This document shows positions 1 through 9,833 of a stretch of DNA of 9,833 nucleotides, piece by piece. A program made the position numbers and the translations under genes. The notes under the pieces were generated by a model. The model ran no database searches and was not told the DNA's origin. It saw only the letters and a list, made by a program, of their open reading frames with translations. The stretch is from IMG/VR virus record IMGVR_UViG_2711768018_000004. The stretch is one strand, 5' to 3'. The stretch's first letter is position 1. Each line of letters begins with the position of its first letter. The DNA comes from a virus (Duplodnaviria > Heunggongvirae > Uroviricota > Caudoviricetes).

Positions 1-173
1 ATATCTACGGCAGCAAGCCAGTAATGGGTTAAGTGATAACAGGTGTCTGGAAATATAGGGGCAAATCCAGCGTTCATCAGCCCCCGCATTGCCGACAGGA
101 TCACAGACGGGGGGCGCAACTGGTTGTCGTTCAACTGGCCCAGCTACCGTTCTTGTATCAGAGGTGTGGCTGC

Positions 174-1565
174 ATGACAACACCAGTCTGGCGTAATGAT
201 GACCTGGAAGGCGCTGTCATTGGCGCATTCTTTCTGCGTGGGGCAGATCATGAAGTGATGGATATTCTGATCACACTACCGGCGGACATTTTTTCTGTAC
301 GAGCGTATCGGGATATCTACACAGGCATCTGCAGACAGGCCCGTGTTTCAGGAGTGATTGACCCCGTGCTGTTGTGTAATGAGATGCCGGAACTTGCCCC
401 GGTGATTACTGATACCGGGCGTAAAACCTGGGTGAAGTCTTCACTGGAGCACTATGTTGCAGCGTTGCGGCGCAATGCCGCACTGCGCGATGCAGAAAAA
501 ACACTGAATGAGGCGCTGCAGAAATTACGTGATGCGCATACCTGTGAAGCAGCTGAAGATGCCCTGAAGGATGCGCAGAACATGATGGTCACACTGTCGA
601 CAGGAAAGGGCGTCATTCAGCCGGTACATATTGATGATGTGCTTCCGGAAGTGGTTGAGCGTGTTGAATGCCGGAATCAGGGGCTGGAGAAATCCAGGAC
701 GTTGATGACCGGTATTGATGAACTGGACGCAAAAACAGGCGGTATGGAGCCCGGAGACCTGGTATTCATTGCCGCCCGTCCTTCGATGGGGAAAACCGAA
801 CTTGCGCTGGACATCATCGACAAGGTGACTGAGCAGGGGCATGGTGTGCTTCTGTTCACCATGGAGATGGCGAACATCCAGATTGGTGAACGTATGGTGT
901 CTGCGGCTGGAGGGATGCCAGTATCACGCCTGAAATCTGTGGCTCACTTTGAAGATGAAGACTGGGCGCGTTTCTCACAAGGGGTGGGGCGGATGACCGG
1001 GCGCAATATCTGGATGGTGGACCAGGCGAACCTGACCATTGATGAGATATGCGCAACAACGAAACACCATCTGATTAAACATCCGGAAACGGCGCTGGTG
1101 GTGGTTGATTATCTCGGGCTGATAAAAACCCGAACCACGGGGCGTCATGACCTTGCCGTGGGTGAAATCTCAAAGGGGCTTAAAGGCCTGGCAAAATCCG
1201 GTGGTTTTCCGTTGATTGCGCTGAGCCAGCTCTCCCGCGGTGTGGAGTCCAGACCCAATAAACGTCCCATGAACTCAGACCTGAAAAATTCCGGAGAAAT
1301 AGAGGCGGATGCAGACATCATTCTGATGCTTTACAGGGATGAAGTGTACAACCCGGATACACAGGCTACAGGCATAGCAGAAATTAATATCACGAAACAA
1401 CGTAACGGTTCTCTGGGGACGATTTACCGGCGTTTTTATAACGGACATTTTCTGCCTGTGGACCAGGAAAGCGCACAGGTTCTTTCCACCCCAATGCGGC
1501 AGCCCCAGCCGCGCAGATACAGCAATACACGTACCGACAGCAGTAAGATGGAGCGTTTCTTTTGA
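174..1565 (+). CDS. Replicative DNA helicase, DnaB family (phage replication helicase, P22 gene 12-like)
   Basis: Same frame as track ORF 33..1565. Walker A motif ARPSMGKT, C-terminal DnaB motifs (ALSQLSRGVESRPNKRPMNSDLKNSGEIEADADI, ITKQRNG) and an N-terminal LEGAVIGAFFL segment resembling the DnaB N-domain. ATG at 174 is preceded by GAGGTG with a 7-nt spacer and gives 463 aa. The track start at 33 is a GTG placed immediately after an in-frame stop, and the 47 aa it would add are Cys/His/Trp-rich and not protein-like. Confidence 0.85.
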   Translation: MTTPVWRNDDLEGAVIGAFFLRGADHEVMDILITLPADIFSVRAYRDIYTGICRQARVSGVIDPVLLCNEMPELAPVITDTGRKTWVKSSLEHYVAALRRNAALRDAEKTLNEALQKLRDAHTCEAAEDALKDAQNMMVTLSTGKGVIQPVHIDDVLPEVVERVECRNQGLEKSRTLMTGIDELDAKTGGMEPGDLVFIAARPSMGKTELALDIIDKVTEQGHGVLLFTMEMANIQIGERMVSAAGGMPVSRLKSVAHFEDEDWARFSQGVGRMTGRNIWMVDQANLTIDEICATTKHHLIKHPETALVVVDYLGLIKTRTTGRHDLAVGEISKGLKGLAKSGGFPLIALSQLSRGVESRPNKRPMNSDLKNSGEIEADADIILMLYRDEVYNPDTQATGIAEINITKQRNGSLGTIYRRFYNGHFLPVDQESAQVLSTPMRQPQPRRYSNTRTDSSKMERFF

Positions 1566-1576
1566 ACAACCAGACA

Positions 1577-1819
1577 ATGACTTTTACCTCTGAACAATTG
1601 CGTAAACACGCGCAGGAAATGTTGCGACAGGCGGAACAACTGGAAAAAACAGGTGTAACAAAAGATGCCATTCGTCGGGATATGGTGCCAGCGCTCAGGG
1701 AACTGATGCAGGCGAAACATCGCGCACAAAAAGCGGTGGATGAGCTCGTTGATTGTGTGGCAGAGCTGGAAACCAAAGTTGGAAAGTTTGAAAAAATGGT
1801 GCAGGAGGTGCTGCGCTGA
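1577..1819 (+). CDS. Hypothetical small protein (80 aa, charged, predicted helical)
   Basis: Open frame between the helicase and rusA. Its stop TGA (1817-1819) overlaps the rusA ATG (1819-1821) as TGATG, suggesting translational coupling. No recognised motif. First ATG is at 1577; an alternative TTG start at 1562 has GGAG 8 nt upstream and overlaps the helicase stop. Confidence 0.5.
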   Translation: MTFTSEQLRKHAQEMLRQAEQLEKTGVTKDAIRRDMVPALRELMQAKHRAQKAVDELVDCVAELETKVGKFEKMVQEVLR

Positions 1820-2190
1820 TGCGCCATGAGTTTATTTTACCTTATCCGCCGACGGTGAATACTTACTGGCGACGTCGTGGCAGCACATATTTTGTATCAA
1901 AAGTTGGTGAGCGTTATCGCCGTGATGTGACGCTAATTGTTCGCCAGCAGCGGCTGAAATTAAACCTGTCCGGAAGGCTGGCGATAAAGATTATTGCAGA
2001 GCCACCGGATAAGCGCCGTCGTGACCTGGACAATATCCTGAAAGCACCACTGGATGCGCTGACGCATGCCGGACTACTCATAGACGACGAGCAGTTTGAT
2101 GAAATCAATATTGTGCGCGGTCAGCTCGTTCCTGGTGGGCGACTGGGCGTGAAGATTTATGAAATCACAGGTGATAACGATGGCGCGTGA
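1819..2190 (+). CDS. rusA: Holliday junction resolvase RusA
   Basis: 123 aa. Colinear with E. coli RusA as recalled, including the hallmark [22 protein letters not shown] segment (RusA: [22 protein letters not shown]) and the C-terminal GGRL motif. ATG at 1819. Confidence 0.9.
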
Positions 2191-2566
2191 TATTCAGCAG
2201 GTTATGGAACGGTGGGGGGCTTGGGCTGCAAACACTCATGAAGATGTATCCTGGGCGTCGATCGCTGCTGGTTTTAAAGGGTTAATTCCGTCGAAAGTGA
2301 AATCACGCCCTCAGTGTTCTGATGATGATGCAATGATAATTTGTGGCTGTATGGCCCGGTTGAACAAGAAAAATCAGGATTTGCACGATTTGCTGGTGGA
2401 TTATTACGTAGGTGGAATGACTTTTATGAGTCTGGCACGGAAACATGGGTGTTCGGATACCTGTATTGGCAAGCGCCTGCAGAAAGCGGAAGGGGTTATT
2501 GATGGCATGTTGATGATGCTTGATATCCGGCTGGAGATGGACAGATACGTAGAACGAATTATGTAG
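2180..2566 (+). CDS. Q: Late-gene antitermination protein Q (QuuD / phage 82-type Q family)
   Basis: [18 protein letters not shown]...[16 protein letters not shown]...[27 protein letters not shown]...DIRLEM closely matches the recalled DLP12 QuuD-type Q protein. ATG at 2180 is preceded by AGGTGA with a 5-nt spacer. It overlaps the rusA 3' end by 11 nt. The track start at 2159 would add 7 aa without a good RBS. Confidence 0.85.
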
Positions 2567-2570
2567 GTGC

Positions 2571-2600
2571 TTGACCAGACACATTGTCCGGGGCTATATT
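2571..2600 (+). promoter_or_regulatory. Candidate late promoter pR' (sigma70-like TTGACC - 18 nt - TATATT)
   Basis: The -35 TTGACC (2571-2576) and -10 TATATT (2595-2600) begin 5 nt after the Q stop codon. Position immediately downstream of Q matches the conserved lambdoid arrangement of pR' and the Q utilisation site. Confidence 0.45.
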
Positions 2601-2661
2601 CCTCACGCGCCAGCAAAATCTGGCGTCGGGATTGGAACCCCGGATAGAGACCGCGACAGAC

Positions 2662-2686
2662 ACACGCCGCGAGCGTGTTTTTTATT
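2662..2686 (+). terminator. Intrinsic terminator candidate (possible tR' ending a short 6S-like leader RNA)
   Basis: Stem ACACGC (2662-2667) / GCGTGT (2673-2678) with loop CGCGA, followed by a T-run (TTTTTTATT). Lies about 60-80 nt downstream of the predicted start of the promoter at 2571-2600. Confidence 0.5.
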
Positions 2687-2811
2687 GTCGTATGCACGCG
2701 CACATCTGAATTATGGTGGGGCGCATGGGGGAGCTGAAAAGCTCGCCGGTCGGTTTCCCGGTAGTTCCAACCCTGTGCGTCTCACCACCCGATGATTGGA
2801 ACCTGACGGTG

Positions 2812-2840
2812 TTGACAGTTTCAGGTTTGCAGTTTACATT
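2812..2840 (+). promoter_or_regulatory. Second sigma70-like promoter candidate (TTGACA - 17 nt - TACATT)
   Basis: Consensus -35 TTGACA at 2812-2817, 17-nt spacer, -10 TACATT at 2835-2840. Lies about 200 nt upstream of the ORF6N-domain gene start. Could be its own promoter or the true pR'. Confidence 0.35.
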
Positions 2841-2873
2841 TCCCCGCGGTGCTCAAAACACCTCGAAAGCGGT

Positions 2874-2901
2874 ATCCACACCCGATAGCCATGTGGTTTT
2901 T
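2874..2901 (+). terminator. Weak hairpin plus T7 run (attenuator/terminator-like)
   Basis: CCACA (2874-2878) pairs with TGTGG (2890-2894) across an 11-nt loop, followed by TTTTTTT (2895-2901). The stem is short, so this is tentative. Confidence 0.3.
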
Positions 2902-3046
2902 TTGTGTCCAGAATTCTTGGTTTATGACCGGGTGTGCGGCTAATACAATACCAGCAATGGAAATACGCCCGCCGACTTTCGACGGTTTTGAGCGCCCGGT
3001 CACCCTCTCAAAAGGGGTAAATCAAAATATTCGAAAGGACATGTCT

Positions 3047-3610
3047 ATGAATCGCACGTCTATTGAAAAACTCCCGTCACTTACGCATAACCATCTTCCT
3101 GTCATGACAACAGAGCTGCTGGCTGATTTGTACGGAACAGAGCGCCAGCGTTTGACAAACAATTTCAATCGAAACAAAGAACGGTTTATAGAAGGTAAAC
3201 ATTTTTTCCTGATAGAAGGTGATGCGTTACGAGAGTTGAAGAACGAAAACTCTTTAAGAGTTTCTGTGAAAATTGCCCGTAACGTTCGCTCCCTCATCCT
3301 CTGGACAGAACGTGGCGCAGCCCGTCACGCCAAAATGCTCGAAACCGATCAGGCGTGGGAAGTGTTCGAAAAACTGGAAGACTGTTATTTCAACCAGAAA
3401 CAGCCACCAGCGGCACAAAACACATCTATCGAAAATGATGGATGCGCATTACTGAGCCACTTCGATAAACACGGTCAGGTTGAGTTCACGGAAAAGGTAC
3501 CCGCCGATGCGATGGTATGTACTCTGGAACGGTTTAAATTTTATCTGGAGCAACACGGGTGGATCGTTGCCCGTAAAGAGCAACTGGTGGAGCGGTTGAT
3601 GCGGTTTTAA
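3047..3610 (+). CDS. ORF6N-domain protein (Ant/KilA-N-like DNA-binding fold), function unknown; late-region cargo gene
   Basis: 187 aa from ATG 3047, with AAAGGA 7 nt upstream. Residues ~15-110 (TTELLADLYGTERQRLTNNFNRNKERFIEGKHFFLIEGDALRELKN...ILWTERGAARHAKML) follow the ORF6N-domain consensus as recalled. The C-terminal ~75 aa have no motif I recognise. An in-frame ATG at 2957 lacks an RBS. Confidence 0.7.
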   Translation: MNRTSIEKLPSLTHNHLPVMTTELLADLYGTERQRLTNNFNRNKERFIEGKHFFLIEGDALRELKNENSLRVSVKIARNVRSLILWTERGAARHAKMLETDQAWEVFEKLEDCYFNQKQPPAAQNTSIENDGCALLSHFDKHGQVEFTEKVPADAMVCTLERFKFYLEQHGWIVARKEQLVERLMRF

Positions 3611-3687
3611 AAATTTTTTCCGAAAACTTTACGATCGTAAAAAGTTGAATATCCTGTTAAGAGTGGTTACTACGCCACACAGCTTAA

Positions 3688-3711
3688 ACCCGCCGATGAG
3701 CGGGTTTTTTT
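3688..3711 (+). terminator. Intrinsic terminator downstream of the ORF6N-domain gene
   Basis: Stem ACCCGC (3688-3693) / GCGGGT (3700-3705) with loop CGATGA, followed by a 7-T run to 3711. Upstream A-run makes it potentially bidirectional. Confidence 0.7.
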
Positions 3712-3761
3712 ATACCTGAAAAACGGCACAGGACGTTAAACGTGCTGGTGGTCAGATGAGT

Positions 3762-3790
3762 TTGCAGATGTGATGACATATGGTTATTAT
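3762..3790 (+). promoter_or_regulatory. Possible promoter for the tRNA cluster (TTGCAG - 17 nt - TATTAT)
   Basis: The -35-like TTGCAG (3762-3767) and -10-like TATTAT (3785-3790) would place the transcription start a few nt before the first tRNA at 3800. Weak call; the tRNAs may simply be transcribed by readthrough from pR'. Confidence 0.25.
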
Positions 3791-3799
3791 TCTGCCTCC

Positions 3800-3876
3800 G
3801 GCCCTTTAGCTCAGTTGGTCAGAGCGAGCGACTCATAATCGCCAGGTCGCTGGTTCAAGTCCAGCAAGGGCCACCA
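3800..3876 (+). tRNA. ileZ: tRNA with anticodon CAT, most likely tRNA-Ile2 (lysidine type, ileX/ileZ-like); tRNA-Met not excluded
   Basis: Cloverleaf: acceptor GGCCCTT/AAGGGCC, anticodon loop CTCATAA, T-arm GCTGG-TTCAAGT-CCAGC, encoded CCA. Very similar to E. coli ileX as recalled. Confidence 0.85.
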
Positions 3877-3877
3877 A

Positions 3878-3954
3878 CCACCACTAGCTCATCCGGATAG
3901 AGCATCAACCTTCTAAGTTGACGGTGCGAGGTTCGAGTCCTCGGTGGTGGGCCA
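3878..3954 (+). tRNA. argN: tRNA-Arg (anticodon TCT, reads AGA)
   Basis: Acceptor CCACCAC/GTGGTGG, anticodon stem TCAAC/GTTGA with loop CTTCTAA, T-arm CGAGG-TTCGAGT-CCTCG, encoded CCA. Starts 1 nt after the previous tRNA. Confidence 0.85.
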
Positions 3955-3956
3955 GC

Positions 3957-4032
<76 letters not shown>

Positions 4033-4035
4033 TAT

Positions 4036-4110
<75 letters not shown>

Positions 4111-4237
4111 GCGAGATTTGAGACGAAGGTTGTTATTTGCACTGACACAATATTGTGTGGGAATGTCTGACTCCTTACCATCTCCTGTTCTGTGATGTTG
4201 TTTTGTTGCAGTTCCAGTGCTCTTTTTTCAGCACCAG

Positions 4238-4600
4238 NNNNNNNNNNNNNNNNNNNNNNNNNNNNNNNNNNNNNNNNNNNNNNNNNNNNNNNNNNNNNNN
4301 NNNNNNNNNNNNNNNNNNNNNNNNNNNNNNNNNNNNNNNNNNNNNNNNNNNNNNNNNNNNNNNNNNNNNNNNNNNNNNNNNNNNNNNNNNNNNNNNNNNN
4401 NNNNNNNNNNNNNNNNNNNNNNNNNNNNNNNNNNNNNNNNNNNNNNNNNNNNNNNNNNNNNNNNNNNNNNNNNNNNNNNNNNNNNNNNNNNNNNNNNNNN
4501 NNNNNNNNNNNNNNNNNNNNNNNNNNNNNNNNNNNNNNNNNNNNNNNNNNNNNNNNNNNNNNNNNNNNNNNNNNNNNNNNNNNNNNNNNNNNNNNNNNNN
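4238..4600. other. Assembly gap (363 N); unresolved sequence
   Basis: Contiguous run of N. Every track ORF crossing it is an artefact of translating N as X. Confidence 0.99.
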
Positions 4601-4702
4601 ATTGGTGTGCTGGGAAGTCTGCTTCTGGGGCTTCTGACTTATCTGACAAATCTGTATTTCAAAATAAGAGAAGACAAGCGTAAGGCTGCGAGAGGTGAAT
4701 AA
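4601..4702 (+). CDS. S: Holin, phage 21 S21-type pinholin (3' fragment only; 5' part lost in the gap)
   Basis: The in-frame C-terminal 33 aa [33 protein letters not shown] match the TMD2 and C-terminus of the S21 pinholin as recalled. Stop TAA (4700-4702) overlaps the endolysin ATG (4702-4704). Confidence 0.7.
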
Positions 4703-5199
4703 TGTCGCCATCATTACGCAAGGCTGTTGCAGCTGCTATTGGTGGTGGGGCTGTTGCTATAGCATCTGTGTTAATCACTGGCCCAGGTGGTAACGATGGT
4801 CTGGAAGGTGTCAGCTACATACCATACAAAGATATCATTGGTGTATGGACTGTATGTCACGGACACACCGGAAAAGACATCATGCTCGGTAAAACGTATA
4901 CCGAAGCAGAATGCAAAGCCCTCCTGAATAAAGACCTTGCCACTGTCGCCAGACAAATTAACCCGTACATCAAAGTCGATATACCGGAAACAACGCGCGG
5001 CGCTCTTTACTCGTTCGTTTACAACGTGGGCGCTGGCAATTTCAGAACATCGACGCTTCTTCGCAAAATAAACCAGGGCGATATCAAAGGCGCATGTGAC
5101 CAGCTACGTCGCTGGACATATGCTGGCGGTAAGCAATGGAAAGGGCTGATGACCCGTCGTGAGATTGAGCGTGAAGTCTGTTTGTGGGGGCAGCAATGA
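4702..5199 (+). CDS. R: SAR endolysin (phage 21 R21-type lysozyme with N-terminal signal-anchor-release domain)
   Basis: 165 aa. Gly/Ala-rich weakly hydrophobic N-terminus [18 protein letters not shown] (SAR domain), then a lysozyme core with the E-D-T catalytic residues in [28 protein letters not shown] 4 nt upstream of the ATG. Confidence 0.9.
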
Positions 5200-5660
5200 G
5201 CAGAGTCACCGCGATTATCTCCGCTCTGGTTATCTGCATCATCGTCTGCCTGTCATGGGCTGTTAATCATTACCGTGATAACGCCATTACCTACAAAGAG
5301 CAGCGCGACAAAAACGCAAGAGAACTGAAGCTGGCGAACGCAACCATTACTGACATGCAGCAGAGACAGCGTGATGTTAATGCACTCGATGCTAAATACA
5401 CGAAGGAGTTAGCTGATGCGAAAGCTGAAAATGAAACTCTGCGCGCTGATGTTGCCGCTGGTCGTCGTCGGTTGCACATCAAAGCAGTCTGTCAGTCAGT
5501 GCGTGAAGCCACCACCGCCTCCGGCGTGGATAATGCAACCAGCCCCCGACTGGCAGACACCGCTGAACGGGATTATTTCACCCTCAGAGAGCGGCTGATG
5601 ACGATGCAGATGCAACTGGAAGGGGCACAGGAGTATATCCGCACTCAGTGCATTAAGTAG
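5196..5660 (+). CDS. Rz: Spanin inner-membrane subunit Rz (i-spanin)
   Basis: 154 aa, near-identical to lambda Rz as recalled ([34 protein letters not shown]...). N-terminal transmembrane segment and coiled-coil periplasmic domain. ATG 5196-5198 overlaps the endolysin stop TGA 5197-5199. Confidence 0.9.
5416..5598 (+). CDS. Rz1: Spanin outer-membrane lipoprotein subunit Rz1 (o-spanin), embedded in Rz in the +1 frame
   Basis: 60 aa [24 protein letters not shown]...PPPPP..., with a lipobox Cys and proline-rich region, matching lambda Rz1 as recalled. GGAG RBS 7 nt upstream of the ATG at 5416. Confidence 0.85.
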
Positions 5661-5702
5661 CCTTTTTATCGTGGTAAACATTTCGCAGGGTATGAGGTAT
5701 TT

Positions 5703-6053
5703 ATGCCATCACTAATCCCACGTGCCTGCCGTAAGCGTGGATGTGCAGGTACAACCACAGACAGTTCGGGTTACTGCGATAAACATCGCGGTGAAGGCTG
5801 GGTGCAGCACCAGCGCGGACTGAGCCGCCACCAGCGTGGCTATGGCTCAAAATGGACGGTGATTCGTGCCCGTATTCTGAAGCGCGATAAAGGTCTGTGT
5901 CAGTTGTGTCTGCGTGTCGGTGTGGTGAGCGAGGCGAAAACCGTCGACCACATCATCCCGAAAGCGCATGGCGGAACAGACGCAGACAGCAACCTGCAGA
6001 GTCTGTGCTGGCCCTGCCATAAAGCGAAAACAGCGCGCGAACGAATCCGGTGA
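5703..6053 (+). CDS. HNH endonuclease (terminase-associated, HK97 gp74-like)
   Basis: 116 aa with Cys-rich zinc-binding pairs (CRKRGC, CQLC, CWPCH) and the HNH core DHIIPKAHGG...N. Lies immediately upstream of the terminase genes, the characteristic position of the packaging HNH nuclease in cos phages. Confidence 0.8.
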   Translation: MPSLIPRACRKRGCAGTTTDSSGYCDKHRGEGWVQHQRGLSRHQRGYGSKWTVIRARILKRDKGLCQLCLRVGVVSEAKTVDHIIPKAHGGTDADSNLQSLCWPCHKAKTARERIR

Positions 6054-6074
6054 TAATTATTCTCACTTGTAGGG

Positions 6075-6134
6075 AGGGGCGGGGCAAATCCCTGTGACCT
6101 GACGTCTTCCGGACTGCCCGCCCCATCGTTTTTT
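6075..6134. other. GC-rich long hairpin followed by a T7 run; candidate cos (cohesive-end/packaging) region or terminator
   Basis: GGGGCGGG (6075-6082) pairs with CCCGCCCC (6116-6123) across a 33-nt loop containing the GACGTC palindrome, followed by ATCG and TTTTTTT (6128-6134). Sits between the HNH and terminase small subunit genes, where HK97-like phages carry cos. Confidence 0.35.
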
Positions 6135-6174
6135 TATACCCGCGAAAAATGAAATTTAACCAGGAGTGCCGCAT

Positions 6175-6669
6175 ATGGCTGGAACGGCGGGGCGTTCCGG
6201 GCGTCGCCCCAAGCCAACGGCGCGCAAGGCGCTGGCCGGAAACCCCGGCAAGCGAGCCCTGAACAAAGATGAACCTGTTTTTACGCCCATCAAAGGTGTT
6301 GAGCCACCAGAGTGGTTCGCTGAAGAAGATCTCCCTCTCGCCACGATCATGTGGCAACTGACAACCAAAGAACTCTGCGGTCAGGGCCTGCTGTGCGTGA
6401 CTGACCTGGCGGTACTTGAGCGGTGGTGCGTGGCCTATGAGTTCTGGCGACGTGCCGTGAAAAATATTGCCATACAGGGCAACACCATCACCGGTGCAAT
6501 GGGCGGCAGGGTCAAAAATCCGGAGCTGACCGCCAAAAAAGAACAGGAGTCCGAGATGAGCAGCACGGGGGCAATGCTCGGACTCGACCCCAGCAGCCGC
6601 CAGCGTCTGATTGGCCTGGCGGGGCAGAAGAAAGCCACTAACCCGTTTCTGAAAATTATCGAATCATGA
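6175..6669 (+). CDS. Terminase small subunit (P27 family)
   Basis: 164 aa starting [27 protein letters not shown], the typical P27-family TerS N-terminus. AGGAG RBS 8 nt upstream of ATG 6175. Stop overlaps the TerL start (ATGA). Confidence 0.85.
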
Positions 6670-8399
6670 GCCGGAAATCTTACCCCAACGTAAATGCTGC
6701 AAATCAGTATGCCCGGGATGTCGTGCGCGGAAAGATTGTTGCCTGCCAGTTTGTGATTCAGGCCTGCCAGCGCCATCTTGATGACCTGATGGCGGAAAAA
6801 AGTAAGTCGTTTCGTTACCGCTTCGACAAGGACCTGGCTGAACGGGCCGCGAAATTTATTCAGCTGTTGCCGCACACCAAGGGGGAGTGGGCATTCAAAC
6901 GGATGCCCATCACGCTGGAGCCGTGGCAGCTATTTGTGATCTGCTGTGCGTTTGGCTGGGTCAATAAAGGCACCCGGTTGCGCCGCTTCCGGGAGGTGTA
7001 CACCGAAATCCCCCGTAAGAACGGCAAATCAGCAATCTCTGCCGGTGTTGCCCTGTATTGTTTTGCCTGTGATAACGAGTTTGGCGCGGAAGTGTATTCC
7101 GGTGCCACGACAGAGAAACAGGCGTGGGAAGTCTTTCGCCCGGCGCGACTGATGTGTAAACGCACACCCATGCTGACGGAAGCGTTCGGGATTGAGGTTA
7201 ACGCCTCAAACATGAACCGTCCGGAGGATGGCGCGCGGTTTGAACCGCTGATCGGCAACCCAGGTGATGGTTCATCACCCCACTGTGCCGTGGTTGATGA
7301 ATATCACGAGCATGCCACCGATGCGCTTTATACCACAATGCTTACCGGGATGGGGGCGCGACGTCAGCCACTGATGTGGGCCATCACCACCGCCGGGTAC
7401 AACATTGAGGGGCCGTGCTACGACAAGCGGCGGGAAGTCATCGAGATGCTCAACGGCTCGGTGCCTAACGATGAACTGTTCGGGATCATCTATACCGTTG
7501 ATGAAGGTGACGACTGGACCGGCCCGCAGGTGCTGGAAAAAGCCAATCCAAATATTGGCGTGTCGGTTTATCGCGAATTTTTGTTAAGTCAGCAGCAGCG
7601 TGCGAAAAATAACGCCCGTCTGGCAAACGTCTTTAAAACAAAACACCTCAATATCTGGGTGTCGGCGCGTTCGGCGTATTTCAACTTGGTGAGCTGGCAG
7701 AGCTGCGAGGATAAATCACTGACCCTTGAGCAGTTCGAGGGGCAGCCGTGCATTCTGGCCTTTGACCTGGCGCGTAAGCTGGATATGAACAGCATGGCGC
7801 GACTTTATACCCGCGAGATTGACGGTAAAACGCATTACTACAGTGTGGCCCCGCGTTTCTGGGTACCGTATGACACGGTGTACAGCGTCGAGAAAAATGA
7901 AGATCGACGGACAGCCGAACGCTTTCAGAAATGGGTGGAAATGGGCGTTCTGACCGTTACCGATGGTGCGGAGGTGGATTATCGCTACATCCTCGAGGAG
8001 GCCAAAGCGGCGAACAAAATCAGCCCGGTCAGTGAGTCACCCATCGACCCCTTCGGGGCGACCGGGTTGTCACATGACCTTGCTGATGAAGACCTGAATC
8101 CCGTCACTATCGTCCAGAACTTCACCAATATGTCCGATCCGATGAAAGAGCTGGAAGCAGCGATTGAATCGGGACGTTTTCATCATGACGGCAATCCCAT
8201 CATGACCTGGTGTATCGGCAACGTGGTCGGCAAAAACATGCCGGGTAACGATGATGTGGTGAAACCCGTCAAAGAGCAGGCGGAAAACAAAATCGATGGT
8301 GCAGTTGCGCTGATTATGGCGGTTGGCAGAGCCATGCTGTACGAGAAAGAAGACACGCTGTCTGACCACATTGAGTCCTACGGGATCCGCTCGCTTTAA
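6666..8399 (+). CDS. Terminase large subunit (HK97-like, Terminase_1 family)
   Basis: 577 aa with a P-loop-like RKNGKSA segment in the N-terminal ATPase region and a C-terminal nuclease-domain-sized region. Size and position (TerS upstream, portal downstream) are typical. Confidence 0.9.
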
Positions 8400-8410
8400 C
8401 TGAGGTAATT

Positions 8411-8593
8411 ATGATCATGCTGATTCTCGCGCCTCTGGTGGGCGTGCTGGGTGCGCTTTTGCTGGCGTATGGTGCCTGGCTGATTTATCCCCCGGCGGGT
8501 TTTGTTGTTGCCGGGGCGCTGTGCCTGTTCTGGTCGTGGCTGGTGGCGCGATATCTCGACCGTACACGGCAGTCTGTCGGCGGAGGTAAATAG
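8411..8593 (+). CDS. Small hydrophobic protein (60 aa, two predicted transmembrane segments), hypothetical
   Basis: ATG 8411 with GAGGT 4 nt upstream. Strongly hydrophobic sequence [48 protein letters not shown]. Stop TAG overlaps the putative portal GTG start. Could be spurious. Confidence 0.4.
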
Positions 8594-9749
8594 TGTTCTT
8601 TTCGGGATTATTTCAACGAAAAAGCGATGTGCCGGTGACCACGCCAGCAGAACTGCTGATGCTATCGGGCTGTCATACGACACCTATACCGGAAAGCGGA
8701 TCAGTAGCCAGCGGGCCATGCGCCTGACGGCGGTCTATTCTTGCGTCAGGGTGCTGGCAGAGTCTGTTGGTATGCTGCCCTGCAGTCTCTACAAAATCAG
8801 CGGTACCCTGAAAACACGGGCGGTGGATGAACGACTGCATAAGTTGGTTTCGGCAAAACCTAATGGCTACATGACACCGCAGGAATTCTGGGAGCTGGTT
8901 ATTGTCTGCCTGTGTCTACGGGGGAATTTTTACGCCTACAAGGTAAAGGCACTGGGAGAAGTGGTGGAGCTTCTTCCGATAGATCCGGGCTGTGTGGAAC
9001 CGAAGCTGAACAGCCAGTGGCAGCCGGTTTATCAGGTGACGTTTCCGGATGGTTCCGTGGATGTGTTGACCCAGAATGAAATCTGGCATGTGCGCACCCT
9101 GACGCTGGATGGACTTGTCGGGCTGAATCCCATTGCGTATGCGCGTGAGGCCATTTCACTGGCAGCGGCAACCGAGGAGCACGGTGCCAGGTTGTTTAGT
9201 AATGGTGCGGTGACATCCGGTGTGTTGCGTACGGAACAAAAGCTCACGCCGGATGCTTACGAGCGTCTGAAGAAAGATTTTGAGGAGTGTCACACGGGGC
9301 TTGGCAATGCTCACCGCCCGATGATTCTGGAAATGGGGCTGGACTGGAAGTCGATGGCGCTGAACGCCGAGGACAGTCAGTTCCTGGAAACCCGCAAGTT
9401 TCAGCTGGAAGAAATCTGTCGTCTGTTCCGGGTGCCGTTGCACATGGTGCAGAACACCGATCGCGCCACCTTCAACAATATCGAAGAGCTGGGGCTGGGA
9501 TTTATCAACTATTCACTGGTGCCGTATCTGACCCGCATCGAACAGCGGATCAACACCGGACTGGTACGAAAAAGTAAGCAGGGCGTTTATTACGCCAAAT
9601 TTAACGCCGGGGCGTTACTGCGCGGGGATATGAAGTCCCGTTTTGAAGCCTACGCCACCGGGATCAACTGGGGAATTTACTCTTCCAATGACTGCCGCGA
9701 CCTGGAAGATATGAATCCGCGTCCCGGTGGTGTAATGCCGATCAGTTAA
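8593..9749 (+). CDS. Portal protein, HK97 family; reading frame apparently interrupted by a 1-bp indel near 8667-8669 (possible pseudogene or sequencing error)
   Basis: Frame +3 from about 8664 to 9749 encodes a portal-like body (TAVYSCVRVLAESVGMLP... through ...PRPGGVMPIS). The likely N-terminus (GTG 8593, GGAGGT RBS, MFFSGLFQRKSDVPVTTPAELLMLSG) is in frame +2 and hits TGA at 8725-8727. The span 8593..9749 is 1157 nt, not a multiple of 3. Confidence 0.75.
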
Positions 9750-9782
9750 GGATCAGTTGACCGATCCAGTGGCTGTGTAAGA

Positions 9783-9816
9783 ATCCGGAAACGCTCACTT
9801 GTTTCCGGATTTTTTT
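9783..9816 (+). terminator. Strong intrinsic terminator downstream of the portal gene
   Basis: 10-bp stem ATCCGGAAAC (9783-9792) / GTTTCCGGAT (9801-9810) with 8-nt loop GCTCACTT, followed by a T-run to 9816. Confidence 0.7.
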
Positions 9817-9833
9817 ATGCACATTGGACAGGC

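Follow-up and report, generated by a model that had tools for sequence, protein, structure and literature searches.

A frameshifted and IS4-truncated portal pseudogene in an IS-bounded prophage remnant of Shigella sonnei

The analysed stretch of DNA, referred to as the window, has a full length of 9,833 nt and comprises a ~9.7 kb IS-bounded remnant of a phiP27/SfIV/ST64B-like prophage in the chromosome of S. sonnei. This species is reported to carry several phiP27-like prophage regions, which are common to its complete genomes (PMC5447701). The gene content of the remnant was determined to be: dnaB-like helicase, rusA, Q, an ORF6N-domain gene, holin, lysozyme, Rz, HNH, terS, terL, ymfR and a truncated portal gene. 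The terminase large subunit gene (6666..8399, plus strand, 577 aa in the ORF list) is intact and contains the Pfam domains TerL_ATPase and TerL_nuclease. For comparison, loci were collected by exact-protein look-ups of the 577-aa terminase and of a 343-aa ORF from the portal region, which are indexed in 4305 and 1695 collection blocks, respectively. The look-ups resulted in 20 fetched loci from 19 NCBI assemblies. In two of these loci, L007 and L013, an additional IS is present inside the dnaB-like gene.

The left boundary of the remnant is the terminus of an IS3-family element (1..66), which we take to be IS2-like. Position 1 of the window corresponds to position 980 of the fetched locus L004 and maps inside a transposase gene with HTH_Tnp_1/rve domains (L004 1-1037). 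In L004, IS4 is truncated by an IS copy whose terminus, TGGATTTGCCCC, reads in reverse complement as the window sequence at 55-66, GGGGCAAATCCA. The window thus runs from IS to IS, as expected of a short-read assembly broken at repeats. On both sides, IS elements and host genes follow directly in the fetched flanks, and gene calling there gave no integrase, repressor, capsid or tail gene. The region of phiP27 covering the portal 3' end, protease and capsid gave no blastn match in any of the 20 loci. At the place of the head module, terS, terL and ymfR were found upstream of the portal gene, and IS4 and host genes downstream of it, without protease or capsid genes.

The direct reading of the window at 8580-8600 is GCGGAGGTAAATAGTGTTC. 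A Shine-Dalgarno-like GGAGGT (8582..8587, plus strand), invariant across the homologues aligned, lies within this stretch 5 nt upstream of the codon GTG 8593. The original prediction, made from the window sequence, had placed the same motif 6 nt upstream. The GTG overlaps the end of a ymfR-like 60-aa gene (8411..8593, plus strand, ORF list), since the stop codon TAG 8591-8593 of the latter shares G8593 with the portal start. phiP27, E. coli A36 and K-12 e14 are annotated with the same overlap, and the phiP27 annotation of the ymfR-like gene product is a membrane protein.

The reading frame opened by GTG 8593 stops at TGA 8725-8727 after 44 codons, which is seen in the ORF list and had been stated in the original prediction. 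According to the ORF list and the homologue alignments, this ORF (8593..8727, plus strand) is the 5' fragment of the portal gene. Only its codons 1-21 (8593-8655) are native, and the other 23 codons are out of frame. From about 8655 onward, the portal-like sequence continues in the frame of the ORF 8502..9749 (stop TAA 9749). This portal body, encoding the native residues 22-380 (8655..9732, plus strand), lies in the -1 frame relative to the start and contains the entire Pfam Phage_portal core. Between the stop codon TGA 8481 and position 8750, the only start codons of the body frame are TTG 8502, 8505 and 8508, all of which are located within the ymfR-like gene, and ATG 8718. The start-codon scan thus agrees with the prediction that the portal body is in another frame and that no start is available to it from 8626 to ATG 8718.

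Homologues of the portal gene were searched by megablast among 5,426 complete E. coli genomes and GenBank phages. The search returned many intact homologues annotated as "phage portal protein", the best of which were ~94% identical, with the gene order terminase large subunit, ymfR or small membrane protein, and portal. The top E. coli and phage matches were exactly 1 nt longer than the window across the stretch of the frame break. The position of the indel was determined by alignment with four homologous portal gene starts (phiP27, E. coli A36, SfIV, and K-12 e14). The intact portal genes of phiP27, E. coli A36 and SfIV are 1242 nt long (413 aa) and begin at the same GTG, which is also the start of the truncated beeE of K-12 e14. 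Every homologue examined starts at the equivalent of GTG 8593 and continues in a single frame, which bears out the proposal that the N-terminus of the window gene is out of frame with its body.

The sole gap in the DNA alignments is found between window positions 8655 and 8656 (plus strand), where the homologues have GAGCTGGCGGA and the window GAACTG-CTGA. One G of an ancestral GG was lost at this site, changing CTGGCK to CTGCT; the homologues read CTGGCG compared to CTG^CTG in the window. Codon 22 has lost its first base, which stood in a GG doublet rather than in a homopolymer run. Ribosomes that start at the native GTG 8593 therefore meet a stop after 44 codons. The 1-nt indel anticipated in the original prediction does exist, but not at the G-run GGG 8667-8669, where it had been placed: this GGG is invariant in all four homologues, and the true site is 12 nt upstream. 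Since the missing base belongs at 8655/8656 and the GGG is conserved, the joined peptide proposed earlier, AELLMLSGLSYDTYTG, is wrong. The insertion of an extra G after 8654 gives ...TTPAELADAIGLSYDTYTG..., and the repaired junction peptide AELADAIGLSYDTYTG is identical to K-12 e14 BeeE over the junction.

A deletion of one base in a draft contig may also result from an assembly or sequencing error, in which case the true genome would have the extra G. The window is indeed a draft contig with an N gap (4238-4600), and some other assemblies of the locus hold indels private to them. However, an 81-nt probe across the deletion (8620-8700) was unchanged in 20 of 20 fetched loci from the 19 assemblies, which include both complete chromosomes and short draft contigs, each of the latter being common to 7 to 20 or more samples. 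One of the chromosomes is CP000038.1, that of S. sonnei Ss046 (PMC5447701), to which the window is 100% identical over 4601-9833 (5233 nt) and 970-4237 (3268 nt). A second 81-nt probe, over the portal/IS4 junction, matched without change in each of the 17 loci extending to it. Both lesions of the portal gene are real and are identical in every fetched assembly covering them. The frameshifted 36-mer and the repaired 27-mer had no exact match among one-genome-per-species contigs, where S. sonnei is presumably unrepresented.

The indels that vary among the assemblies served as a control. Seven such sites were detected, each in one to three assemblies and only elsewhere than at the deletion; the assemblies differing from the window by indels were those of L007, L010, L013, L017, and L019. 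Homopolymers of 5-6 nt account for five of these sites (A5 at 6145, A6 at 6535, A6 at 6796, G5 at 6881, and C5 at 8489), in contrast to the GG doublet of the portal deletion. Assembly errors in this region thus have a recognisable pattern, which the portal deletion does not follow. The agreement between many assemblies effectively refutes, at the level of sequence, the alternative offered in the original prediction that a draft homopolymer error had caused the frameshift, and the probability left to such an artefact is close to nil. The other option of that prediction, a real frameshift in a defective prophage, is upheld by the same deletion in Ss046 and in 20/20 loci, and more strongly than could be known when it was made.

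The N run at 4238-4600 (363 N) had been considered as a point in favour of an assembly error. It replaces 667 bp of the Ss046 sequence (L020 3269-3935) and is unrelated to the portal gene; the length of the gap is not the true length. In Ss046, the 667-bp stretch is mostly non-coding-looking, lies upstream of the holin gene and runs into it. Differences private to one to three assemblies were observed at window positions 5663, 6145, 6535-6536, 6765, 6796, 6881, 7263, and 8489. In a few chromosome-scale assemblies the private indels split terS, terL or ymfR; here the error probably lies in the assembly of those records and not in that of the window. A different kind of variation was seen in the complete genome CP044191.1 (L009/L018), where 80 alignment positions differ from window 4731-5627; blastn gave 69 mismatches and 7 gap openings. 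The differences are confined to ~900 bp that span lysozyme and Rz, and CP044191.1 is otherwise identical within the compared stretch, the portal frameshift included. The patch looks like gene conversion from a paralogous lambdoid prophage.

The two frames of the portal gene overlap at 8593-8724, and a programmed -1 slip of the ribosome or of the RNA polymerase within this overlap would yield the full portal protein. The direction required is -1, G8655 belongs both to the last native codon read in the start frame and to the first one read in the body frame, and an A5 run is found at 8619-8623. The A5 run is, however, also present in homologues that do not need slippage, and no X XXY YYZ heptamer occurs in the zero frame between 8593 and 8725. 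Moreover, the two-frame layout is not conserved, as phiP27, E. coli A36, SfIV and K-12 e14 are all read in a single frame from GTG. Having found neither a slippery heptamer nor conservation of the layout, we regard recoding as unsupported and its probability as vanishingly small. Furthermore, neither the 3' end of the gene nor any of its partner head genes is present at the locus, which would leave a recoded product without assembly partners there.

The second lesion is located at the 3' end of the gene. The left end of IS4 (TAATGCCGATCAGTTAAGG..., 9733..9833, plus strand) starts directly after ...CGTCCCGGTGGTG and replaces portal codons 381-413, that is, the last 33 codons. The homologues continue with RPGGDVYLTPMNM... 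for 33 further codons; the window reads instead RPGGVMPIS*. Over 9728-9833 the window matches an IS4 (InsG) copy at 100% identity, and the element was assigned to IS4 by its terminal sequence and a 442-aa transposase with the domains Nterm_IS4 and DDE_Tnp_1. The complete element is present in L009, L012, L017 and L018, and in L009 it occupies 11016-12441. A search for the right inverted repeat of IS4 as the perfect complement of the left end gave no match; in L009 the right end is ...CTGACTGGCATTA, with the imperfect inverted end ...GGCATTA. The original prediction overlooked both the IS4 lesion at 9733 and the lack of the remaining head/tail module at the locus.

The IS4 copy of L009 is flanked on the left by ...CCCGGTGGTG and on the right by CAGCCCTTGAG..., the latter belonging to the raiA upstream region. 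No target-site duplication was found between these flanks, as a simple insertion would have left, and no portal 3' end was found beyond IS4. Therefore, IS4 marks the junction of a deletion or an inversion. Two chromosomal arrangements were detected to the right of IS4 in the complete chromosomes among the fetched loci, one with the bamE-recN-nadK-grpE side and the other with the raiA-pheL-pheA-tyrA-aroF side, and the S. sonnei strains thus differ by an IS-mediated rearrangement at this point. In other strains an IS3-family element adjoining bamE cuts into IS4 itself.

Gene callers report a 343-aa ORF from the internal ATG (8718..9749, plus strand), which ends with VMPIS* inside IS4. The 343-aa ORF scored 359.8 bits against PF04860 at model positions 2-321 of 321, and the repaired protein scored 359.2 bits (E = 2.6e-107) over the same positions. 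The Pfam Phage_portal core corresponds to residues 47-373 of the intact protein and both lesions are just outside it; therefore, the 343-aa ORF still matches the entire model, and automated annotation can mistake it for an intact portal. The phiP27 orthologue matched the HK97 portal 8cez_A with E = 1.5e-53 over residues 17-387. Instead of a single intact ORF of ~413 aa, the window contains a 44-codon ORF, a frame change and a 3' truncation. By its sequence, the window gene belongs to the HK97-family portals, as a pseudogene rather than as a functional portal gene.

The complete Pfam model within the 343-aa ORF, together with the adjoining terS, terL, HNH and lysis genes, which are intact in most assemblies, may be taken to indicate that a truncated portal-core protein is made from ATG 8718 and kept for a host or satellite function. 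No Shine-Dalgarno-like sequence was found upstream of ATG 8718, however, and for this reason expression of the 343-aa ORF is unlikely. Ribosomes from the coupled ymfR/GTG start would terminate at 8727, past the ATG, and the end of the ORF consists of the IS4-derived residues VMPIS. The intact neighbours are no evidence of selection either, because the S. sonnei genomes compared are nearly identical. A retained 343-aa product is therefore considered very improbable. We would give still less credence to the idea that the 343-aa ORF and terS/terL/HNH form a domesticated packaging or portal-like module (e.g. for a helper or satellite phage), or that a low-level -1 slip at G8655 gives a near-native portal.

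Among known systems, the window is close in DNA sequence to the phiP27 group. The phiP27 portal (NP_543090.1, L38) and its relatives in SfIV, SfII, SfI and ST64B share from ~94% (phiP27) down to 89% DNA identity with the window, the same order of HNH, terS, terL, ymfR-like gene and portal, and a GTG overlapping the upstream stop codon. In the phiP27 group, the portal is intact with 413 aa and is followed by protease and capsid genes, whereas in the window one G is missing in codon 22, codons 381-413 are gone, and there are no downstream head genes. The closest parallel is beeE of the K-12 cryptic prophage e14, which belongs to the same portal family, has the ymfR overlap and is likewise a decayed portal gene. 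The decay differs in form: in beeE the native start frame is preserved, and ~140 native residues remain before a deletion joins the gene to tail genes, in contrast to the frameshift at codon 22 and the IS4 truncation at codon 380 of the window gene. The HK97 portal gp3 (PDB 8cez, 8fql) is a functional dodecameric portal, whereas the window copy is not translatable as one chain. IS-driven genome decay is general in Shigella. The window locus resembles it in being IS-bounded and in having IS4 at the junction of a rearrangement, with no target duplication beside it, and no feature sets the locus apart from this kind of decay.

Taken together, the portal gene is very probably a pseudogene with two independent lesions that has decayed neutrally in an IS-bounded S. 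sonnei prophage remnant. The first lesion is the G missing between 8655 and 8656. The second is IS4 at 9733, removing the last 33 codons, with the protease, capsid, connector and tail genes absent from the locus. Both lesions presumably arose once and were then inherited clonally in S. sonnei; as one clonal species was sampled, the agreement of the assemblies shows inheritance, not repeated selection. The remnant presumably cannot make a head, and therefore the portal frameshift would be without a consequence of its own. It may represent the neutral decay of an already useless gene or one of the inactivating hits. No near-identical allele was found among the complete E. coli genomes (best 93.9%), which provided no intermediates to order the lesions.

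The frameshift should be annotated as that of a genuine pseudogene and should not be "corrected". The 414-aa portal called in the Ss046 style from TTG 8502, which overlaps ymfR, is an ORF-extension artefact, and so is the 343-aa call from ATG 8718. Prophage finders should score the region as a non-inducible remnant. For S. sonnei, the sequence has been publicly available from the Ss046 genome onward, and the portal gene is an ordinary decayed phage gene in an IS-rich chromosome.
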